Notes under the pieces: generated by a model
Seen by the model: only the letters and a program-made list of their open reading frames with translations
What the model was told of the DNA's origin: nothing
Databases searched by the model: none
Shown here: positions 23,145-40,775 of the stretch, one piece after another
How positions within the stretch are numbered: the first letter of the stretch is position 1
Layout of the letters: each line of letters begins with the position of its first letter
Program-made: the position numbers and the translations under genes
Source of the DNA: a virus
Taxonomy: Duplodnaviria; Caudoviricetes
IMG/VR virus record: IMGVR_UViG_3300025646_000052
Coordinates: 1-54,244 of that record
Length of the DNA stretch: 54,244 nucleotides
Direction: 5' to 3' (one strand)

Positions 23145-26100
23145 ATGGCAAATATAAGATATCTAGACCAAGTAACAGTTGGCCCTTCCGTAACTTCTAT
23201 TAGTGGTGAATCCACTACTTCTGGCACATCTGGAACCGCAGGTTCTTCAGGCACAACTGGCTCATCTGGAACATCAGGATATTCAGGTTCTGCAGGTACT
23301 TCAGGTATTACTGGATCTTCAGGTCAATCAGGTTCTACTTCAGGAACATCAGGCTCTGGTGGTTCTTCAGGTACTTCAGGTGCCGTAGGTTCTTCAGGCG
23401 AATCTAGTACATCCGGCTCTTCAGGCGAATCAGGCACTTCAGGCACTTCAGGCTCTTCAGGCGAATCAGGTACTTCAGGCTCTTCAGGCGAATTTGGAAC
23501 ATCAGGTTCATCAGGAAGTTCAGGTTCATCAGGTAGTTTAGGTTCTTCAGGTAGTTCAGGTTCATCAGGTTCAAGTGGTTCTTCAGGTTCATCAGGTTCA
23601 AGCGGAACATCAGGTTTAAGCGGTTTTTCAGGTAGTTCAGGTTCATCAGGTAGTTCAGGTTCTTCAGGTAGTTCAGGTTCAAGTGGTTCATCAGGAAGTT
23701 CAGGTTCATCAGGTAGTTCAGGTTCATCAGGTAGTTCAGGTTCATCAGGTTCAAGTGGAGCTGATGGCTCTTCAGGTGAATCTGGTACTTCAGGTTCATC
23801 AGGAGTTGCTGGCTCATCCGGTACTTCAGGTTCATCAGGTTCAAATGGTTCATCTGGCACTTCAGGCGAATCTGGCACTTCAGGTTTAAGTGGATCTACA
23901 GGTTCAAACGGTACCTCAGGTAACACTGGTACCTCAGGTCAATCCGCTCAATCTTCAACATCAGGCTCTTCCGGCTCTTCAGGTACTACTGGCTCAACAG
24001 GAGCTGCAGGTACATCAGGCGAAGCTGCAACTTCAGGTTCAGCAGGTTCATCTGGTACAAATGGTACAAGTGGAAATTTAGGCTCATCAGGAGCCTCAGC
24101 TCAATCAGGCACTTCAGGCTCATCAGGTACAGTAGGTTCAACCGGAGCTGCGGGTACATCAGGTTTATCTGGTTCATCTGGTTCATCTGGTTCAACAGGA
24201 GAATCAGGTACTAGTGGAATTTCAGGTACTTCAGGCGAATCTAATTCTTCAGGAACTAATGGTTCTTCAGGCAATAGTGGTACATCTGGTGAATCCGGTA
24301 CATCAGGTTCAGCTGGCTCTTCAGGTACTATAGGCTCAAGTGGTACAGGTGCAGGCTCAGGTTCATCAGGTACTTCAGGTTCTTCAGGTGAATCTGCAAC
24401 TTCAGGTTCATCAGGCTCTTCAGGTTTAGCTGGCACATCAGGAGCTTTAGGTTCAAGCGGAGAATCAGCCCAATCAGGTACCTCAGGCTCTACAGGTTCA
24501 AACGGTACTTCAGGTAACACAGGAACATCTGGTCAATCAGCTCAATCTTCAACATCAGGCTCTTCAGGTTCTTCAGGTACTACTGGTTCAACTGGAGCTT
24601 CAGGTACATCAGGTGAATCTGGCACTTCAGGTTTATCAGGCTCTACAGGTTCAAACGGTACTTCAGGTAACACAGGTACTTCAGGTCAATCTGCTCAATC
24701 TTCAACATCAGGTTCTTCAGGTTCTTCAGGTACTACTGGCTCATCTGGTGAGTCTGGCACATCAGGTGAATCTGGCACTTCAGGTTTATCAGGTTCAACT
24801 GGTTCAAATGGTACCTCAGGTAACACAGGAACATCTGGTCAATCAGCTCAATCTTCAACTTCAGGTTCATCTGGTTCTTCAGGCACAACTGGCTCATCTG
24901 GTGAGTCTGGCACATCAGGTGAATCTGGATCTTCTGGTACTTCAGGTTCAACAGGTGAATCTGGTACCTCAGGTAATAATGCTACTTCAGGTTTATCAGG
25001 TTCATCAGGTACAGTAGGTTCAACAGGAGAATCAGGTACTTCAGGTGAATCAGGTACATCAGGTTCAGCTGGATCTTCAGGTACTATAGGTTCAAGTGGT
25101 ACAGGAGCTGGTGCTGGTACTTCAGGTGAATCTGGTTCATCAGGTGAATCTGCAACTTCAGGCTCAGCAGGCTCTTCAGGCTCAGCTGGTACATCAGGAG
25201 ATTTAGGATCATCAGGAGCATCAGCTCAATCAGGAACTTCAGGCTCTACAGGCTCAAATGGTACCTCAGGTAACACAGGAACATCTGGTCAATCAGCTCA
25301 ATCTTCAACTTCAGGTTCTTCTGGTACTTCAGGTACTACAGGTTCAACTGGCATAGCAAGTACTTCAGGTGAAGCTGGATCTTCAGGTTCATCAGGTTCT
25401 TCTGGTACCCAAGGTTCTACAGGAGCCGCAGGTACTTCAGGCGAATCTACTACATCTGGTACTTCAGGCTCTTCAGGTACAGTAGGTTCAACCGGAGCTG
25501 CTGGTACTTCAGGAGAAGCAGCCACATCTGGTACTTCAGGTTCTTCAGGTACTATAGGTTCAAGTGGTACAGGAGCTGGTGCTGGTACTTCAGGTGAATC
25601 TGGTTCATCAGGTGAATCTGCAACTTCAGGCTCTTCAGGTTCATCTGGTACAAACGGTACCTCAGGTAATATAGGATCATCAGGAGCATCAGCTCAATCA
25701 GGAACTTCAGGTTCTACTGGTTCAAACGGTACTTCAGGTAATACAGGCACTTCAGGCCAATCTGCCCAATCAGGCACATCAGGTAGCTCAGGCTCATCTG
25801 GAACTACAGGTTCAACAGGAGCTGCAGGTACTTCAGGCGAAGCTGCTACATCAGGCTCATCAGGCTCTTCTGGTACTCAAGGCTCAACAGGAGCCGCAGG
25901 TACTTCAGGCGAATCTACTACATCAGGCACTTCAGGTTCTTCGGGCACAGTAGGTTCAACTGGAGCTGCTGGTACTTCAGGAGAAGCAGCTACATCAGGC
26001 TCTTCAGGATCTTCAGGTACTATAGGTTCAAGTGGTACAGGTGCAGGCTCAGGTACATCAGGTATTTCAGGTTCTTCAGGTGAATCTGCAACTTCAGGTT

Positions 26101-39579: not shown

Positions 39580-40775
39580 AAGAAGTTTTAATTGACGAAT
39601 ATAATAGTACTAAAATTTTAAAAATTCCATTTAAAAAGTTACAAAATAAATTTTCTTGTAATTTTGTAGATGGGGCTTTTATAGAAGTTACTGGTCCTGA
39701 AGAAAAACAATATAAAGTTGTATTTACTGACCAAGACACCCAAACTATATTACACGATACTACTATTAGTACTAACATGTGGACTCGTACTAACATTAAA
39801 TATTTTATTAATTGGTTAGTTCAAGTATATGATGCCTCAAATAATGAATTAGTTTTTGAACATAAGTATAATCCTGAAGGTAAAAGAGTTTACATCCATA
39901 TGGATTCAAGTGCTATTGGTGATACATTAGCTTGGTTTCCCTATGTTGATGAATTTAGAAAAAAATGGAATTGCCATGTTATAACTTCTACATTCCATAA
40001 TGATTGGTTTATCGATGAATACCCAGAACTAGAATTTATAACTCCTGGAGTTGAAGTATTTGATTTGTATGCTATGTATGGTGTAGGTTGGCATTATGAA
40101 AGTGATGCGGTTGTTAATTATAGTAAGGTACCCCGTGATTTTAAAGCTTTAAATTTACAACAAACTTCAACTGATATTCTAGGATTAGAGTATACTGAAA
40201 TAAAACCCAAAATAAAACTCCCACAAGAACCTTCTCCATTAAAAGAAAAGTATGTAGTAATAGCCCCCCACGCTTCGGCTCATGCTAAGTATTGGAATTA
40301 TCCTAGAGGATGGCAAACTGTTATTGATTATCTAAATAAACAAGGCTACAAAGTAGTAATGATTACTCAAGAACCTTGGGGAGATAAATGGCATGATTCT
40401 AAATTAGGAGGAACTTTAAAAGGAATTATAAATAAAACTGGAGATTTTTCATTAGAAGAAAGAATAAATCAAATTAAACATGCTGATGCATTTATTGGTG
40501 TTGGTAGTGGTTTAAGTTGGTTAGCTTGGGCTACTGGAACCCCAGTTATACTAATCTCAGGATTTAGCGAACCACATACAGAATTTACTTGTGAAAGAGT
40601 ATTTCCTAAAAGATCTAATGTATGTACTGGATGTTTTAACCGTGAATGGTTAAATCCTGGAGATTGGGAATGGTGTCCTGACCATAAAGGAACTTTACGT
40701 CAATTCGAATGCACAAAAAATATTACTCCTAATATGGTAATAAGTGCTTTACAAAAAACCCTTAATATTTATTAA
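39576..40775 (+). CDS. Autotransporter O-heptosyltransferase-like glycosyltransferase (TibC/Aah family, GT9-related)
   Basis: AIGDTLAWFPYVDEFRKK, KYWNYPRGWQTVIDYL, FIGVGSGLSWLAWATGTPVILISGFS, Cys cluster CTGC...WCP...RQFECTKNIT. Confidence 0.85.
   Translation: MKEVLIDEYNSTKILKIPFKKLQNKFSCNFVDGAFIEVTGPEEKQYKVVFTDQDTQTILHDTTISTNMWTRTNIKYFINWLVQVYDASNNELVFEHKYNPEGKRVYIHMDSSAIGDTLAWFPYVDEFRKKWNCHVITSTFHNDWFIDEYPELEFITPGVEVFDLYAMYGVGWHYESDAVVNYSKVPRDFKALNLQQTSTDILGLEYTEIKPKIKLPQEPSPLKEKYVVIAPHASAHAKYWNYPRGWQTVIDYLNKQGYKVVMITQEPWGDKWHDSKLGGTLKGIINKTGDFSLEERINQIKHADAFIGVGSGLSWLAWATGTPVILISGFSEPHTEFTCERVFPKRSNVCTGCFNREWLNPGDWEWCPDHKGTLRQFECTKNITPNMVISALQKTLNIY
40765..40773 (+). promoter_or_regulatory. 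Putative late promoter motif ATATTTATT
   Basis: Within the last codons of the upstream gene, before 40787. Confidence 0.5.

Follow-up and report, generated by a model that had tools for sequence, protein, structure and literature searches.

The DNA analyzed here (the window) is the complete IMG/VR contig IMGVR_UViG_3300025646_000052, which is 54,244 bases long, has a GC content of ~33%, and is estimated to represent ~36% of its genome. The source is an uncultured freshwater T4-like myophage, of which the window is an Immutovirus-like fragment. The structural block of the window is T4-like with all genes in one direction: the genes for the large terminase, a Gp20-type portal, the prohead protease, and a Gp23-type capsid are followed by PhoH, a head-tail adaptor-like gene, the region described in this report, and then the sheath, tube, and baseplate genes. 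The region (Table 1) fills the slot between a conserved neck-proximal gene (p315) and a small gene preceding the sheath gene (orf82), and encodes two very long collagen-like fiber proteins (fibA and fibB), a 50-residue product (orf50, a label that carries no function), and three glycosyltransferase (GT) genes, namely the multidomain GTfus, GT4, and a homologue of the TibC/Aah protein O-heptosyltransferases (the BAHT family). An earlier note on this DNA, made from the sequence alone, had placed two proteins with about 3700 residues of Gly triplets, a 50-residue open reading frame (ORF), and three overlapping GT genes between the neck and sheath genes. All of these ORFs were recovered exactly, with Gly-X-Y repeats totaling 3722 residues over fibA and fibB and with the adaptor-like gene and the sheath gene as flanks, and ATGA stop/start overlaps were found at the fibB/orf50, GTfus/GT4, and GT4/TibC-like junctions.

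Table 1. Features of the neck-to-sheath region and its borders. Positions are those of the window.
Feature	Position (nt)	Length or residues (aa)	Strand	Description
Head-tail adaptor-like gene	20427-21605			phrog_211; left flank
p315	22152-23099		+	Conserved neck-proximal gene; left border of variable slot
fibA	23145-31688	2847	+	Collagen-like fiber protein
fibA N-terminal anchor motif	23145-23183	13 residues	+	MANIRYLDQVTVG
fibA Gly-X-Y region	23223-31139	27-2665 (2639 residues)	+	
fibA Peptidase_S74 intramolecular chaperone	31380-31544	2746-2800	+	C-terminal; preceded by TTTS/DRRLK
Terminator-like hairpin, then T-run	31712-31731		+	In 98-nt gap between fibA and fibB
fibB	31787-35746	1319	+	Collagen-like fiber protein; 54-residue N-terminal domain
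fibB Gly-X-Y region	31949-35197	55-1137 (1083 residues)	+	
fibB C-terminal non-repeat domain	35198-35743	182 residues	+	No S74 domain
orf50	35743-35895	50	+	Start overlaps fibB stop
GTfus	35930-38632	900	+	Three GT domains (GT-B, GT-A, GT-A)
GTfus GT-B/GT4 domain	35930-36889	1-320		
GTfus first GT-A domain		~321-550		
GTfus beta-sandwich		~555-650		
GTfus second GT-A domain	~37934-38584	~669-885		
GT4	38629-39579	316	+	GT4-family glycosyltransferase
TibC-like gene	39576-40775	399	+	TibC/Aah-family (BAHT) protein O-heptosyltransferase homologue
orf82	40787-41035		+	Conserved small gene, always precedes sheath; right slot border, outside module
Tail sheath gene	41085-43205		+	Pfam Phage_sheath_1, Phage_sheath_1C; phrog_23

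The repeat regions of the two fiber proteins were compared with 200 shuffles of the same composition. In-phase Gly-X-Y runs cover 87.5% of the repeat region in fibA and 92% in fibB (2310 and 999 residues), which is four to five times the cover in the shuffles (459 and 222 residues on average, 588 and 321 at most). Almost all breaks between runs are whole triplets (81 of 83 in fibA and 24 of 27 in fibB, so that 105 of the 110 keep register), indicating that the register holds over nearly the whole length, and at these breaks Gly is replaced mostly by Ala, Ser, and Asn in fibA and by Arg and Ser in fibB. Both proteins have the Gly at every third residue of collagen-like proteins and score above the cut-off of the Pfam Collagen model (PF01391; 34.7 bits for fibA and 34.6 bits for fibB, cut-off 27.2). 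The X and Y positions are ~70–90% Ser, Thr, or Asn, with GTS, GSS, GST, and GNS as the commonest triplets. The helix-stabilizing residues of collagens are all but missing, the X/Y fractions being 0.00 for Pro, 0.00–0.02 for Asp and Glu together, and 0.00–0.01 for Lys and Arg together; the entire proteins contain 3 (fibA) and 9 (fibB) prolines, and Cys is almost or entirely absent from the repeats. The trimerization domain of fibA is a clear Peptidase_S74 domain (PF13884; 68.4 bits against a cut-off of 22, E = 6e-19). An S74 domain marks a trimeric phage fiber and is a chaperone that is cut off after folding. The TTTS-DRRLK sequence at its start contains the Ser...Lys autocleavage motif, in which the Ser and Lys five residues apart are what we take, from the endosialidase literature, to be the S74 catalytic dyad. 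A junction motif, GT(A)GTYVSI.AG.GL.GGGSL.TDRT, is common to fibA and fibB. The C-terminal domain of fibB has homologues in the related loci L008, L010, L032, and L034, in which orf50, itself without a Pfam or PHROG match, is kept at 66–70%; an ESM Atlas search with this domain gave scores of at most 0.88 to viral collagen-repeat clusters, a lead only. If the shafts are triple-helical, they would be ~755 and ~310 nm long, at the triple-helix rise of 0.286 nm per residue.

The TibC/Aah-like label that the earlier note gave to the third GT turned out to be much firmer than could be known from the sequence alone. The 399-residue protein scores 326.5 bits on the TIGR04414 equivalog model (cut-off 200), and its sole PDB sequence matches are the TibC entries 4rb4/4rap (E = 1e-58, residues 29–394 aligned with residues 27–385 of TibC). 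By comparison, it reaches 24–46 bits against cut-offs of 135–467 on the RfaQ and RfaC models and those of heptosyltransferases I, II, and III, thus failing all lipopolysaccharide (LPS) models. In Pfam it matches Glyco_transf_9 with 56.1 bits; the N-terminal part, where the alignment begins at residue 29 (residue 27 of TibC), is sub-threshold on TibC_1st (18.9 bits, cut-off 27). The catalytic base of TibC is Asp-110, the sugar is bound by Thr-226, Lys-230, Arg-286, and Trp-305, and the iron-finger is formed by Cys-339, Cys-342, Cys-358, and Cys-370, as described in PMC4358343. In the alignment the catalytic base corresponds to Asp-116, the four sugar-binding residues to Ser-234, Lys-238, Arg-296, and Trp-315 (4/4 kept, with one Thr to Ser exchange), and the four cysteines to Cys-350, Cys-353, Cys-367, and Cys-379 (4/4 kept). 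The position linked to stereoselectivity, which is Pro in TibC (Pro-300) and Ser in Aah, is Gly-310 here, unlike either of them. The thumb-tip residues Phe-265 and Val-266 of TibC fall in a 2-residue gap followed by a 5-residue insertion, in a loop whose alignment cannot show the presence of the hairpin. By sequence, then, the protein is a true member of the TibC/Aah family, a family of protein-serine GTs and not of LPS enzymes. Collections of metagenome proteins contain 4345 relatives with E ≤ 1e-10, many of them already named "autotransporter strand-loop-strand O-heptosyltransferase" in the source databases, so that the family assignment itself is not new.

For the two other GTs, the GT4 label of the earlier note was upheld by Pfam Glycos_transf_1 (45.1 bits for GTfus and 29.6 bits for the 316-residue protein, cut-off 26.4), and a PDB sequence search with both proteins gave nothing at E ≤ 1. 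AlphaFold models of GTfus were used to define its domains. Since the fold search with the whole model (predicted local distance difference test score, pLDDT, of 75) was dominated by the N-terminal GT-B domain, residues 321–900 were modeled separately (pLDDT 81). With VIA-align, residues 1–320 gave a Z-score of 19.3 to HepE with a root mean square deviation (rmsd) of 3.6 Å over 279 residues, and a similar match to WaaG; among the GT4-type proteins of the window, it is GTfus for which the model shows the GT-B fold. In the model of residues 321–900, its residues 1–260 gave Z-scores of 13.5–13.1 to B4GALNT1 and glycogenin, and its residues 352–565 a Z-score of 12.8 to Mimivirus R655. The label of a GT25-like part that the earlier note gave to GTfus is weak and was not established: the Pfam GT25 model (PF01755) reaches 21.1 bits, below its cut-off of 24, and the part in question consists of two generic GT-A domains, tied at Z-scores of 11–13 with many GT-A families. 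Foldseek matches of GTfus to COLGALT1, LH3, and Mimivirus R699 were likewise set aside as specific evidence (TM-score of at most 0.26, rmsd of at least 20 Å); they appear, judging from the models, to reflect a generic tandem GT-A arrangement. Altogether the module encodes five GT domains, which would be enough for an oligosaccharide.

With their ATGA overlaps, the genes from fibB to the TibC-like gene form a co-directional, translationally coupled series within the block of late structural genes. For the TATAAATA motif, which resembles a T4 late promoter, 17 copies were counted where 8.4 are expected, with no occurrence in an intergenic position upstream of fibA, fibB, or the GTs, and a sigma-70 scan performed no better than shuffles. 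The sole terminator-like hairpin here is the one between fibA and fibB, which is not statistically remarkable (3 such sites in 19.5 kb, compared with 9.5 in shuffles). Contigs of two metatranscriptome libraries (X19 and X20) match parts of fibB, GTfus, GT4, orf82, and the sheath gene with 0–2 differences, a weak hint of expression given that DNA carry-over is possible; the parts that these contigs leave uncovered are uninformative.

The region is best described as an accessory fiber and fiber-modification cassette in a variable neck-sheath slot. The closest isolate, Flavobacterium phage vB_FspM_immuto, has an identical gene order and amino acid identities of 57% in the capsid, 60% in PhoH, 50% in the sheath, and 60% in the tube; its neck-to-sheath interval holds different fiber genes, and none of the three window GTs was matched in it at E ≤ 1e-3. 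Homologues of p315 occur at 48–58% amino acid identity in relatives and in immuto, and orf82 is kept also in relatives with neither fibers nor GTs; in six non-redundant relatives orf82 and the sheath gene come 30–77 nt after p315. Viral contigs were scanned with the TibC-like protein, which yielded 223 relatives of which 80 loci were kept, and with the sheath protein, which yielded 80 further loci, most of them without GTs. The 160 loci and the window collapsed to 109 non-redundant clusters, which were counted if they showed the whole p315-orf82 slot or at least 6 kb. The TibC-like gene lies upstream of the sheath gene in 80 of the 80 viral loci that carry it. GT4 is directly upstream of the TibC-like gene in 78 of these loci, the two misses having at most 394 nt of upstream sequence, and the 900-residue GT is present in 63, all misses being contigs that end early; the gene order is never broken. 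Among the informative clusters, 28 combine a Gly-rich fiber with GTs, none has the fiber without GTs, 15 have neither (13 with a complete slot, which measures merely 30–77 nt in six), and four have GTs without a long Gly-rich ORF. Fisher's test on these counts gives p = 5e-9, which is not a proper probability, the loci being related and the statistic not corrected for phylogeny. The co-occurrence and synteny of TibC-like genes with Gly-Ser-Ser repeat ORFs had been proposed in the earlier note as a check of its idea, and the outcome it regarded as damaging, that the two do not co-occur, did not arise. In two of the four clusters with GTs and no long Gly-rich ORF (L056 and L075) the contigs end before the place of the fiber in relatives, and a third (L149) has a 308-residue Gly-X-Y fiber below the length threshold. 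Two clusters with a fiber and no GT (L138 and L143) are uninformative, as the contigs break off inside the fiber gene or shortly upstream of it. Four relatives without GTs (L086, L101, L109, and L111) have a 560–864-residue non-Gly-X-Y protein directly after p315, and the N-terminus of the slot protein in such relatives (MARVRFLDQVPVG..., MARVRFLDQV...) matches that of fibA (MANIRYLDQVTVG...). The shared motif suggests that an attachment peptide is kept while the shaft is swapped, and that the GTs come with the Gly-rich shaft and not with the slot.

The fiber-GT pairing occurs in three architectures, the first being that of the window. In the second, an S74-ended fiber is followed in turn by a 437-residue GT9, a GT4 (which in some loci carries an extra GT2 domain), a small gene, and a second Gly-X-Y fiber (L088, L133, and L146). 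In the third, an S74-ended fiber is followed by a ~775-residue GT4::TibC fusion (L127 and others), whose TibC-like domain scores 235 bits on TIGR04414; such fusions tie the GT4 and TibC-like enzymes to one pathway. L088, L131–134, L138, and L146 were at one point taken for a class without GTs, which was abandoned when GT9 and GT4 genes turned up upstream of their fiber. Carriers are also found at a greater distance. The cultured Microcystis phage Mel-JY01 has a Gly-X-Y frame, a structural protein, and then a 1226-residue protein with GT4 and TibC-like domains that is annotated as an FkbM methyltransferase, and an uncultured 735-kb phage also encodes a GT4::TibC fusion. Some relatives carry fibers of a different chemistry together with further enzymes. 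The fibers of L023, L027, L081, and L082 (three non-redundant clusters) consist of GPQ/GYQ repeats with 12–14% Pro, and these are the sole fiber-bearing loci where three further genes, for a GT2-methyltransferase, a DUF6445 protein, and an oxygenase of the 2OG-Fe(II) type, separate the fiber from the GTs; no locus with a Ser/Thr-rich, Pro-free fiber has any of the three. The oxygenase scores 53 bits on PF13640 and matches PKHD-type hydroxylases with E = 3e-8, and a PDB sequence search with the DUF6445 protein gave nothing at E ≤ 1. This gene content suggests that the GPQ/GYQ fibers may be hydroxylated before glycosylation. L061 and L080, which are near-identical and form one cluster, have an S74-ended beta-roll fiber, an extra 303-residue gene, and a sulfotransferase. 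Across the loci, the enzyme set tracks the fiber chemistry.

Taken as a whole, the module probably makes glycosylated virion fibers; O-glycosylation of the fibers is the best reading of the region, by an argument of guilt by association, and it is favored because of the TibC-like family membership and the co-variation of fibers and GTs across relatives. In the mechanism proposed, fibA and fibB would form trimeric collagen-like filaments, the S74 chaperone would drive the trimerization of fibA and then be cleaved off, and the short N-terminal motif would dock fibA on the virion. The five GT domains would be made together with the fibers late in infection and would build O-linked glycans on ~1900 Ser/Thr residues of the fibers. 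The TibC-like enzyme would start the chains in the cytoplasm by attaching heptose, or a sugar related to it, to Ser residues of nascent or folding fibers, with a nucleotide sugar of the host as donor, and GT4 and the three GTfus domains would extend the glycan. The sequence analysis shows the gene content, the family of the TibC-like enzyme, its conserved catalytic residues, and the co-variation of fibers and enzymes in relatives; that the enzymes act on the fibers, which sugar they use, in what order they work, and what the phage gains are inferred. The gain could lie in stabilization and hydration of a proline-free triple helix, protease resistance, and adhesion or host search. By the usual rules, Pro-free and uncharged Gly-Ser/Thr repeats are not expected to form a stable triple helix. 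The sugars may therefore be structural, substituting for stabilization by Pro and hydroxyproline, and not merely a coat; in Riftia collagen, galactosylated Thr has been associated with thermal stability (PMC10141479).

Several observations weigh against this reading. The known BAHT substrates described in PMC4358343 are beta-helical autotransporter passengers, not triple helices. The thumb-tip gap in the TibC-like enzyme means that the dodecameric ring of TibC may differ here. L151, the last of the four clusters with GTs and no long Gly-rich ORF, shows in 6.3 kb of visible sequence just a 236-residue, repeat-free homologue of the second fiber, and the Ser, Thr, and Asn content is equal between fibers that lie beside different GT sets. 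Joint inheritance as a single cassette could by itself also keep the fiber and GT genes together. The scanned ORFs of the window and five related partial records yielded no ADP-heptose pathway gene (GmhA/SIS_2); these records are 29–69% complete and the window covers about a third of its genome, and absence of the pathway from the genomes does not follow. A CTP_transf_like match in one of the five records, to a 783-residue frame, is weak (merely 21 bits on re-scan). With no donor pathway found, the donor would have to come from the host. The idea of the earlier note that the phage builds glycosylated filaments is partly supported: the co-occurrence and the TibC family membership favor it, and the nucleotide-sugar genes of the gmhA/hldE type, which it had proposed to look for, did not turn up in the window or the five records. 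The roles that it suggested for the filaments (a glycocalyx, shielding, slower sedimentation) are putative.

The alternative that survives best is that during infection the GTs modify the surface of the host, be it its capsule or the core or O-chain of its LPS, which could block superinfection or the adsorption of progeny to lysed cells, and merely share a hypervariable host-recognition slot with the fibers. The synthesis of LPS and polysaccharides is where GT4 and GT-A enzymes typically occur, which also counts against fiber glycosylation, and GT9 folds belong to the same usual set; in PMC7029224 the GTs beside fiber genes in aquatic T4-like phages (pelagimyophages), in a host-recognition cluster, are read as host O-chain modification. 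The lack of a phage-encoded sugar-nucleotide pathway in the sequences scanned fits such a role as well. Nevertheless, the GT9 member is an equivalog-level match to protein O-heptosyltransferases that passes none of the LPS heptosyltransferase models, all 15 informative relatives without Gly-rich fibers also lack GTs even though other fibers occupy their slot, the hydroxylase and sulfotransferase genes track fiber composition, and the GT genes are coupled to fibB within the late structural block. The family assignment and the co-variation therefore argue against host-surface modification, which we consider unlikely as an account of the module while it remains conceivable for the GT4 and GT-A domains. 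A somewhat less probable alternative is that other virion proteins (capsid, sheath, or tube) are glycosylated, and the collagen-like fibers not, or not alone. The GT genes are directly upstream of orf82 and the sheath gene, and mycobacteriophage GTs glycosylate the C-termini of capsid and tail-tube proteins according to PMC12619734, yet relatives with 50–65% identical sheath and tube proteins and no Gly-rich fiber have no GTs; no Ser/Thr-rich extension was noticed on the sheath or capsid, although no systematic examination was made. We regard it as very improbable that the GTs modify phage DNA, in the manner of the glucosylation of hydroxymethylcytosine in T4, or are unrelated cargo next to unmodified repeat ORFs. 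T-even phages do encode DNA glucosyltransferases of the GT-B fold, and T4 alpha-glucosyltransferase is among the fold matches of GTfus (Z-score 16), but dozens of enzymes with the GT4 fold tie with it there, proteins are the substrates of the TibC family, neither the location nor the co-variation with fibers fits, and base-modification genes were not seen in the scanned ORFs of the window. Hardly credible, finally, is that the Gly-X-Y ORFs are repeat DNA or assembly artifacts that happen to be open: internally repetitive DNA can mislead assemblers and the copy number may be wrong, but the frames stay open over 8.5 and 4.0 kb at the low GC content of the window, the proteins have a genuine S74 domain as well as conserved domains at the N- and C-termini, dozens of independent contigs carry homologous ORFs, and the repeats (periods of 9 to 468 nt at 60–84% matches) have diverged from one another, unlike what a simple assembly artifact would give.

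Fiber glycosylation by such a module would resemble several known systems. With TibC/TibA and Aah/AIDA-I of Escherichia coli, the window shares a full-length homologue of the enzyme with the same catalytic and iron-finger residues, and its gene likewise adjoins that of a very long, repetitive, Ser-rich surface filament, the putative substrate of hyper-glycosylation; some relatives of the window even pair the enzyme with a beta-roll/beta-solenoid fiber. In contrast, those systems are bacterial with an autotransporter as the neighbor, whereas here a phage encodes a trimeric collagen-like fiber, the thumb-tip residues fall in an alignment gap, the stereoselectivity position is Gly, and four further GT domains make an oligosaccharide likely instead of a single heptose. 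In the serine-rich-repeat adhesins of Gram-positive cocci, GT4-fold enzymes (GtfA/B and SdgA/B) densely O-glycosylate Ser-rich adhesins whose genes lie close by; the fold matches of GTfus include GtfA and SdgB (Z-scores of 16–16.5), a likeness common to all GT4 enzymes and no sign of a specific sequence relationship. BclA of the Bacillus anthracis/cereus exosporium nap is a trimeric collagen-like filament with O-linked oligosaccharides on its Thr-rich Gly-X-Y region, but it is bacterial, carries rhamnose and anthrose, and is glycosylated without a BAHT enzyme. Its repeats are GPT and contain proline. Among viruses, Mimivirus encodes collagen-like proteins plus enzymes that modify them, such as L230 (lysyl hydroxylase and glucosyltransferase; PMC9614988), and the relatives with Pro-containing fibers add a 2OG-Fe(II) oxygenase; L230, however, glycosylates hydroxylysine, and the fiber repeats of the window are almost without Lys. 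Other phage and prophage fibers have the same Gly-X-Y repeats followed by Peptidase_S74, prophage collagen-like proteins being known in E. coli O157 (PMC3368898), but fibA is far longer in its repeats, nearly Pro-free, and accompanied by a dedicated GT cluster. Mycobacteriophage virions are glycosylated (Freeman et al. 2023, as cited in PMC12619734), likewise by phage GTs encoded in the structural region that decorate virion proteins, with differences in the GT families, the targets, and the host phylum; the finding is consequently not new in kind. The individual ingredients, that is, BAHT hyper-glycosylation, S74 collagen fibers, BclA, Mimivirus L230, and glycosylated mycobacteriophage virions, are each already known. 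In the literature searched, with subscription journals and supplements outside its scope, there was no description of a phage-encoded BAHT or of a BAHT paired with collagen-like fibers.

If fiber O-glycosylation is correct, the TibC-like enzyme would be the first protein heptosyltransferase of the BAHT type to serve a virus, and the module would give a first indication that glycosylated virions, demonstrated to date in mycobacteriophages, are common among environmental phages of Gram-negative bacteria and cyanobacteria. It would also change how GT genes beside fibers in aquatic T4-like phages are read, now as host LPS modification (PMC7029224), and would represent a natural Pro-free, sugar-stabilized collagen design. 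The cultured phage Mel-JY01 is a carrier in which the idea is directly testable. A broader picture can be drawn only tentatively, and as a whole we lean against it: widespread T4-like phages of aquatic habitats, and a cyanophage and a huge phage independently of them, might carry micrometer-scale, proline-free "collagen" filaments stabilized and solubilized by dense Ser/Thr O-glycosylation, with sugars replacing hydroxyproline, begun by a phage member of the BAHT family and extended by four GT domains. The shaft and its matching enzymes (GTs, hydroxylases, sulfotransferase, and methyltransferases) would be swapped as one cassette, giving a programmable glyco-coat by which a phage adjusts its encounter radius, its stickiness, and how well it withstands proteases or grazers.

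Further observations were made on the fibers of relatives. The motif M-A/P-x-x-R-F/Y-L-D-Q-V-x-V-G is common to otherwise unrelated fibers that occupy one and the same genome position, occurring at the start of fibA and at 3111 in L086, 3231 in L101, 42 in L104, 4507 in L109, and 1637 in L111, and a second motif, MPRNPFLDQV..., heads other small slot proteins; these N-terminal motifs are likely virion-docking peptides. In Mel-JY01 (L083, PP395634) the Gly-X-Y frame is open for 1016 residues on the plus strand (2–3049; 25% Gly, 24% Ser, and 16% Thr) and runs off the start of the record, so the fiber may continue across the record ends. The frame is unannotated, with two minus-strand hypothetical genes and a short plus-strand ORF annotated over it, which is probably a mis-annotation. 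In the 735-kb phage (L164, LR756501) a 699-residue ORF with 35 Gly-x-y windows lies at 5221–7317 on the minus strand, opposite to and just upstream of two large GTs, and may be their local substrate. At 1–2502 in L023, 3–2513 in L027, and 1–4550 in L081, the GPQ/GYQ/GSQ fibers have Pro or Tyr in X and Gln in Y, and the GT2-methyltransferase, DUF6445, and oxygenase genes come directly after them. At 2–5081 in L061 and 1–7078 in L080, the Gly-rich beta-roll fiber (Pfam LbR_Ice_bind, the beta roll of grass antifreeze) is followed by two small genes, the 303-residue protein, and the sulfotransferase, and a sulfated or glycosylated beta-solenoid fiber is possible at these loci. The type-B relative L149 has at 2273–7886 a hexapeptide-repeat protein that is acyltransferase-like by sequence appearance, a 1385-residue multidomain GT, two GT9 genes, and its short Gly-X-Y fiber, a gene set that points to acylated glycans.

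DNA near-identical to the window was found in metagenome runs from 14 studies (18 of 20 such runs being DNA, most of them freshwater), the habitats being freshwater, estuarine, marine, urban, and aquatic metagenomes. The window has no tRNA genes. Its PhoH-like gene (19662–20393) has the major capsid gene on one side and the neck genes on the other, an arrangement shared with immuto. Upstream of the terminase gene, at 5000–7566, are genes for an FAD/NAD-type oxidoreductase (458 residues), a small cupin (153 residues) with a sub-threshold WbuC-family match, and an AAA_28 P-loop protein (176 residues), which could have an auxiliary part in the metabolism of sugars or nucleotides. Three large ORFs of 876, 582, and 1004 residues that follow the tube gene, at 45294–53259, have no Pfam match and are weakly similar to the tape measure/baseplate region of immuto (27–41% amino acid identity).

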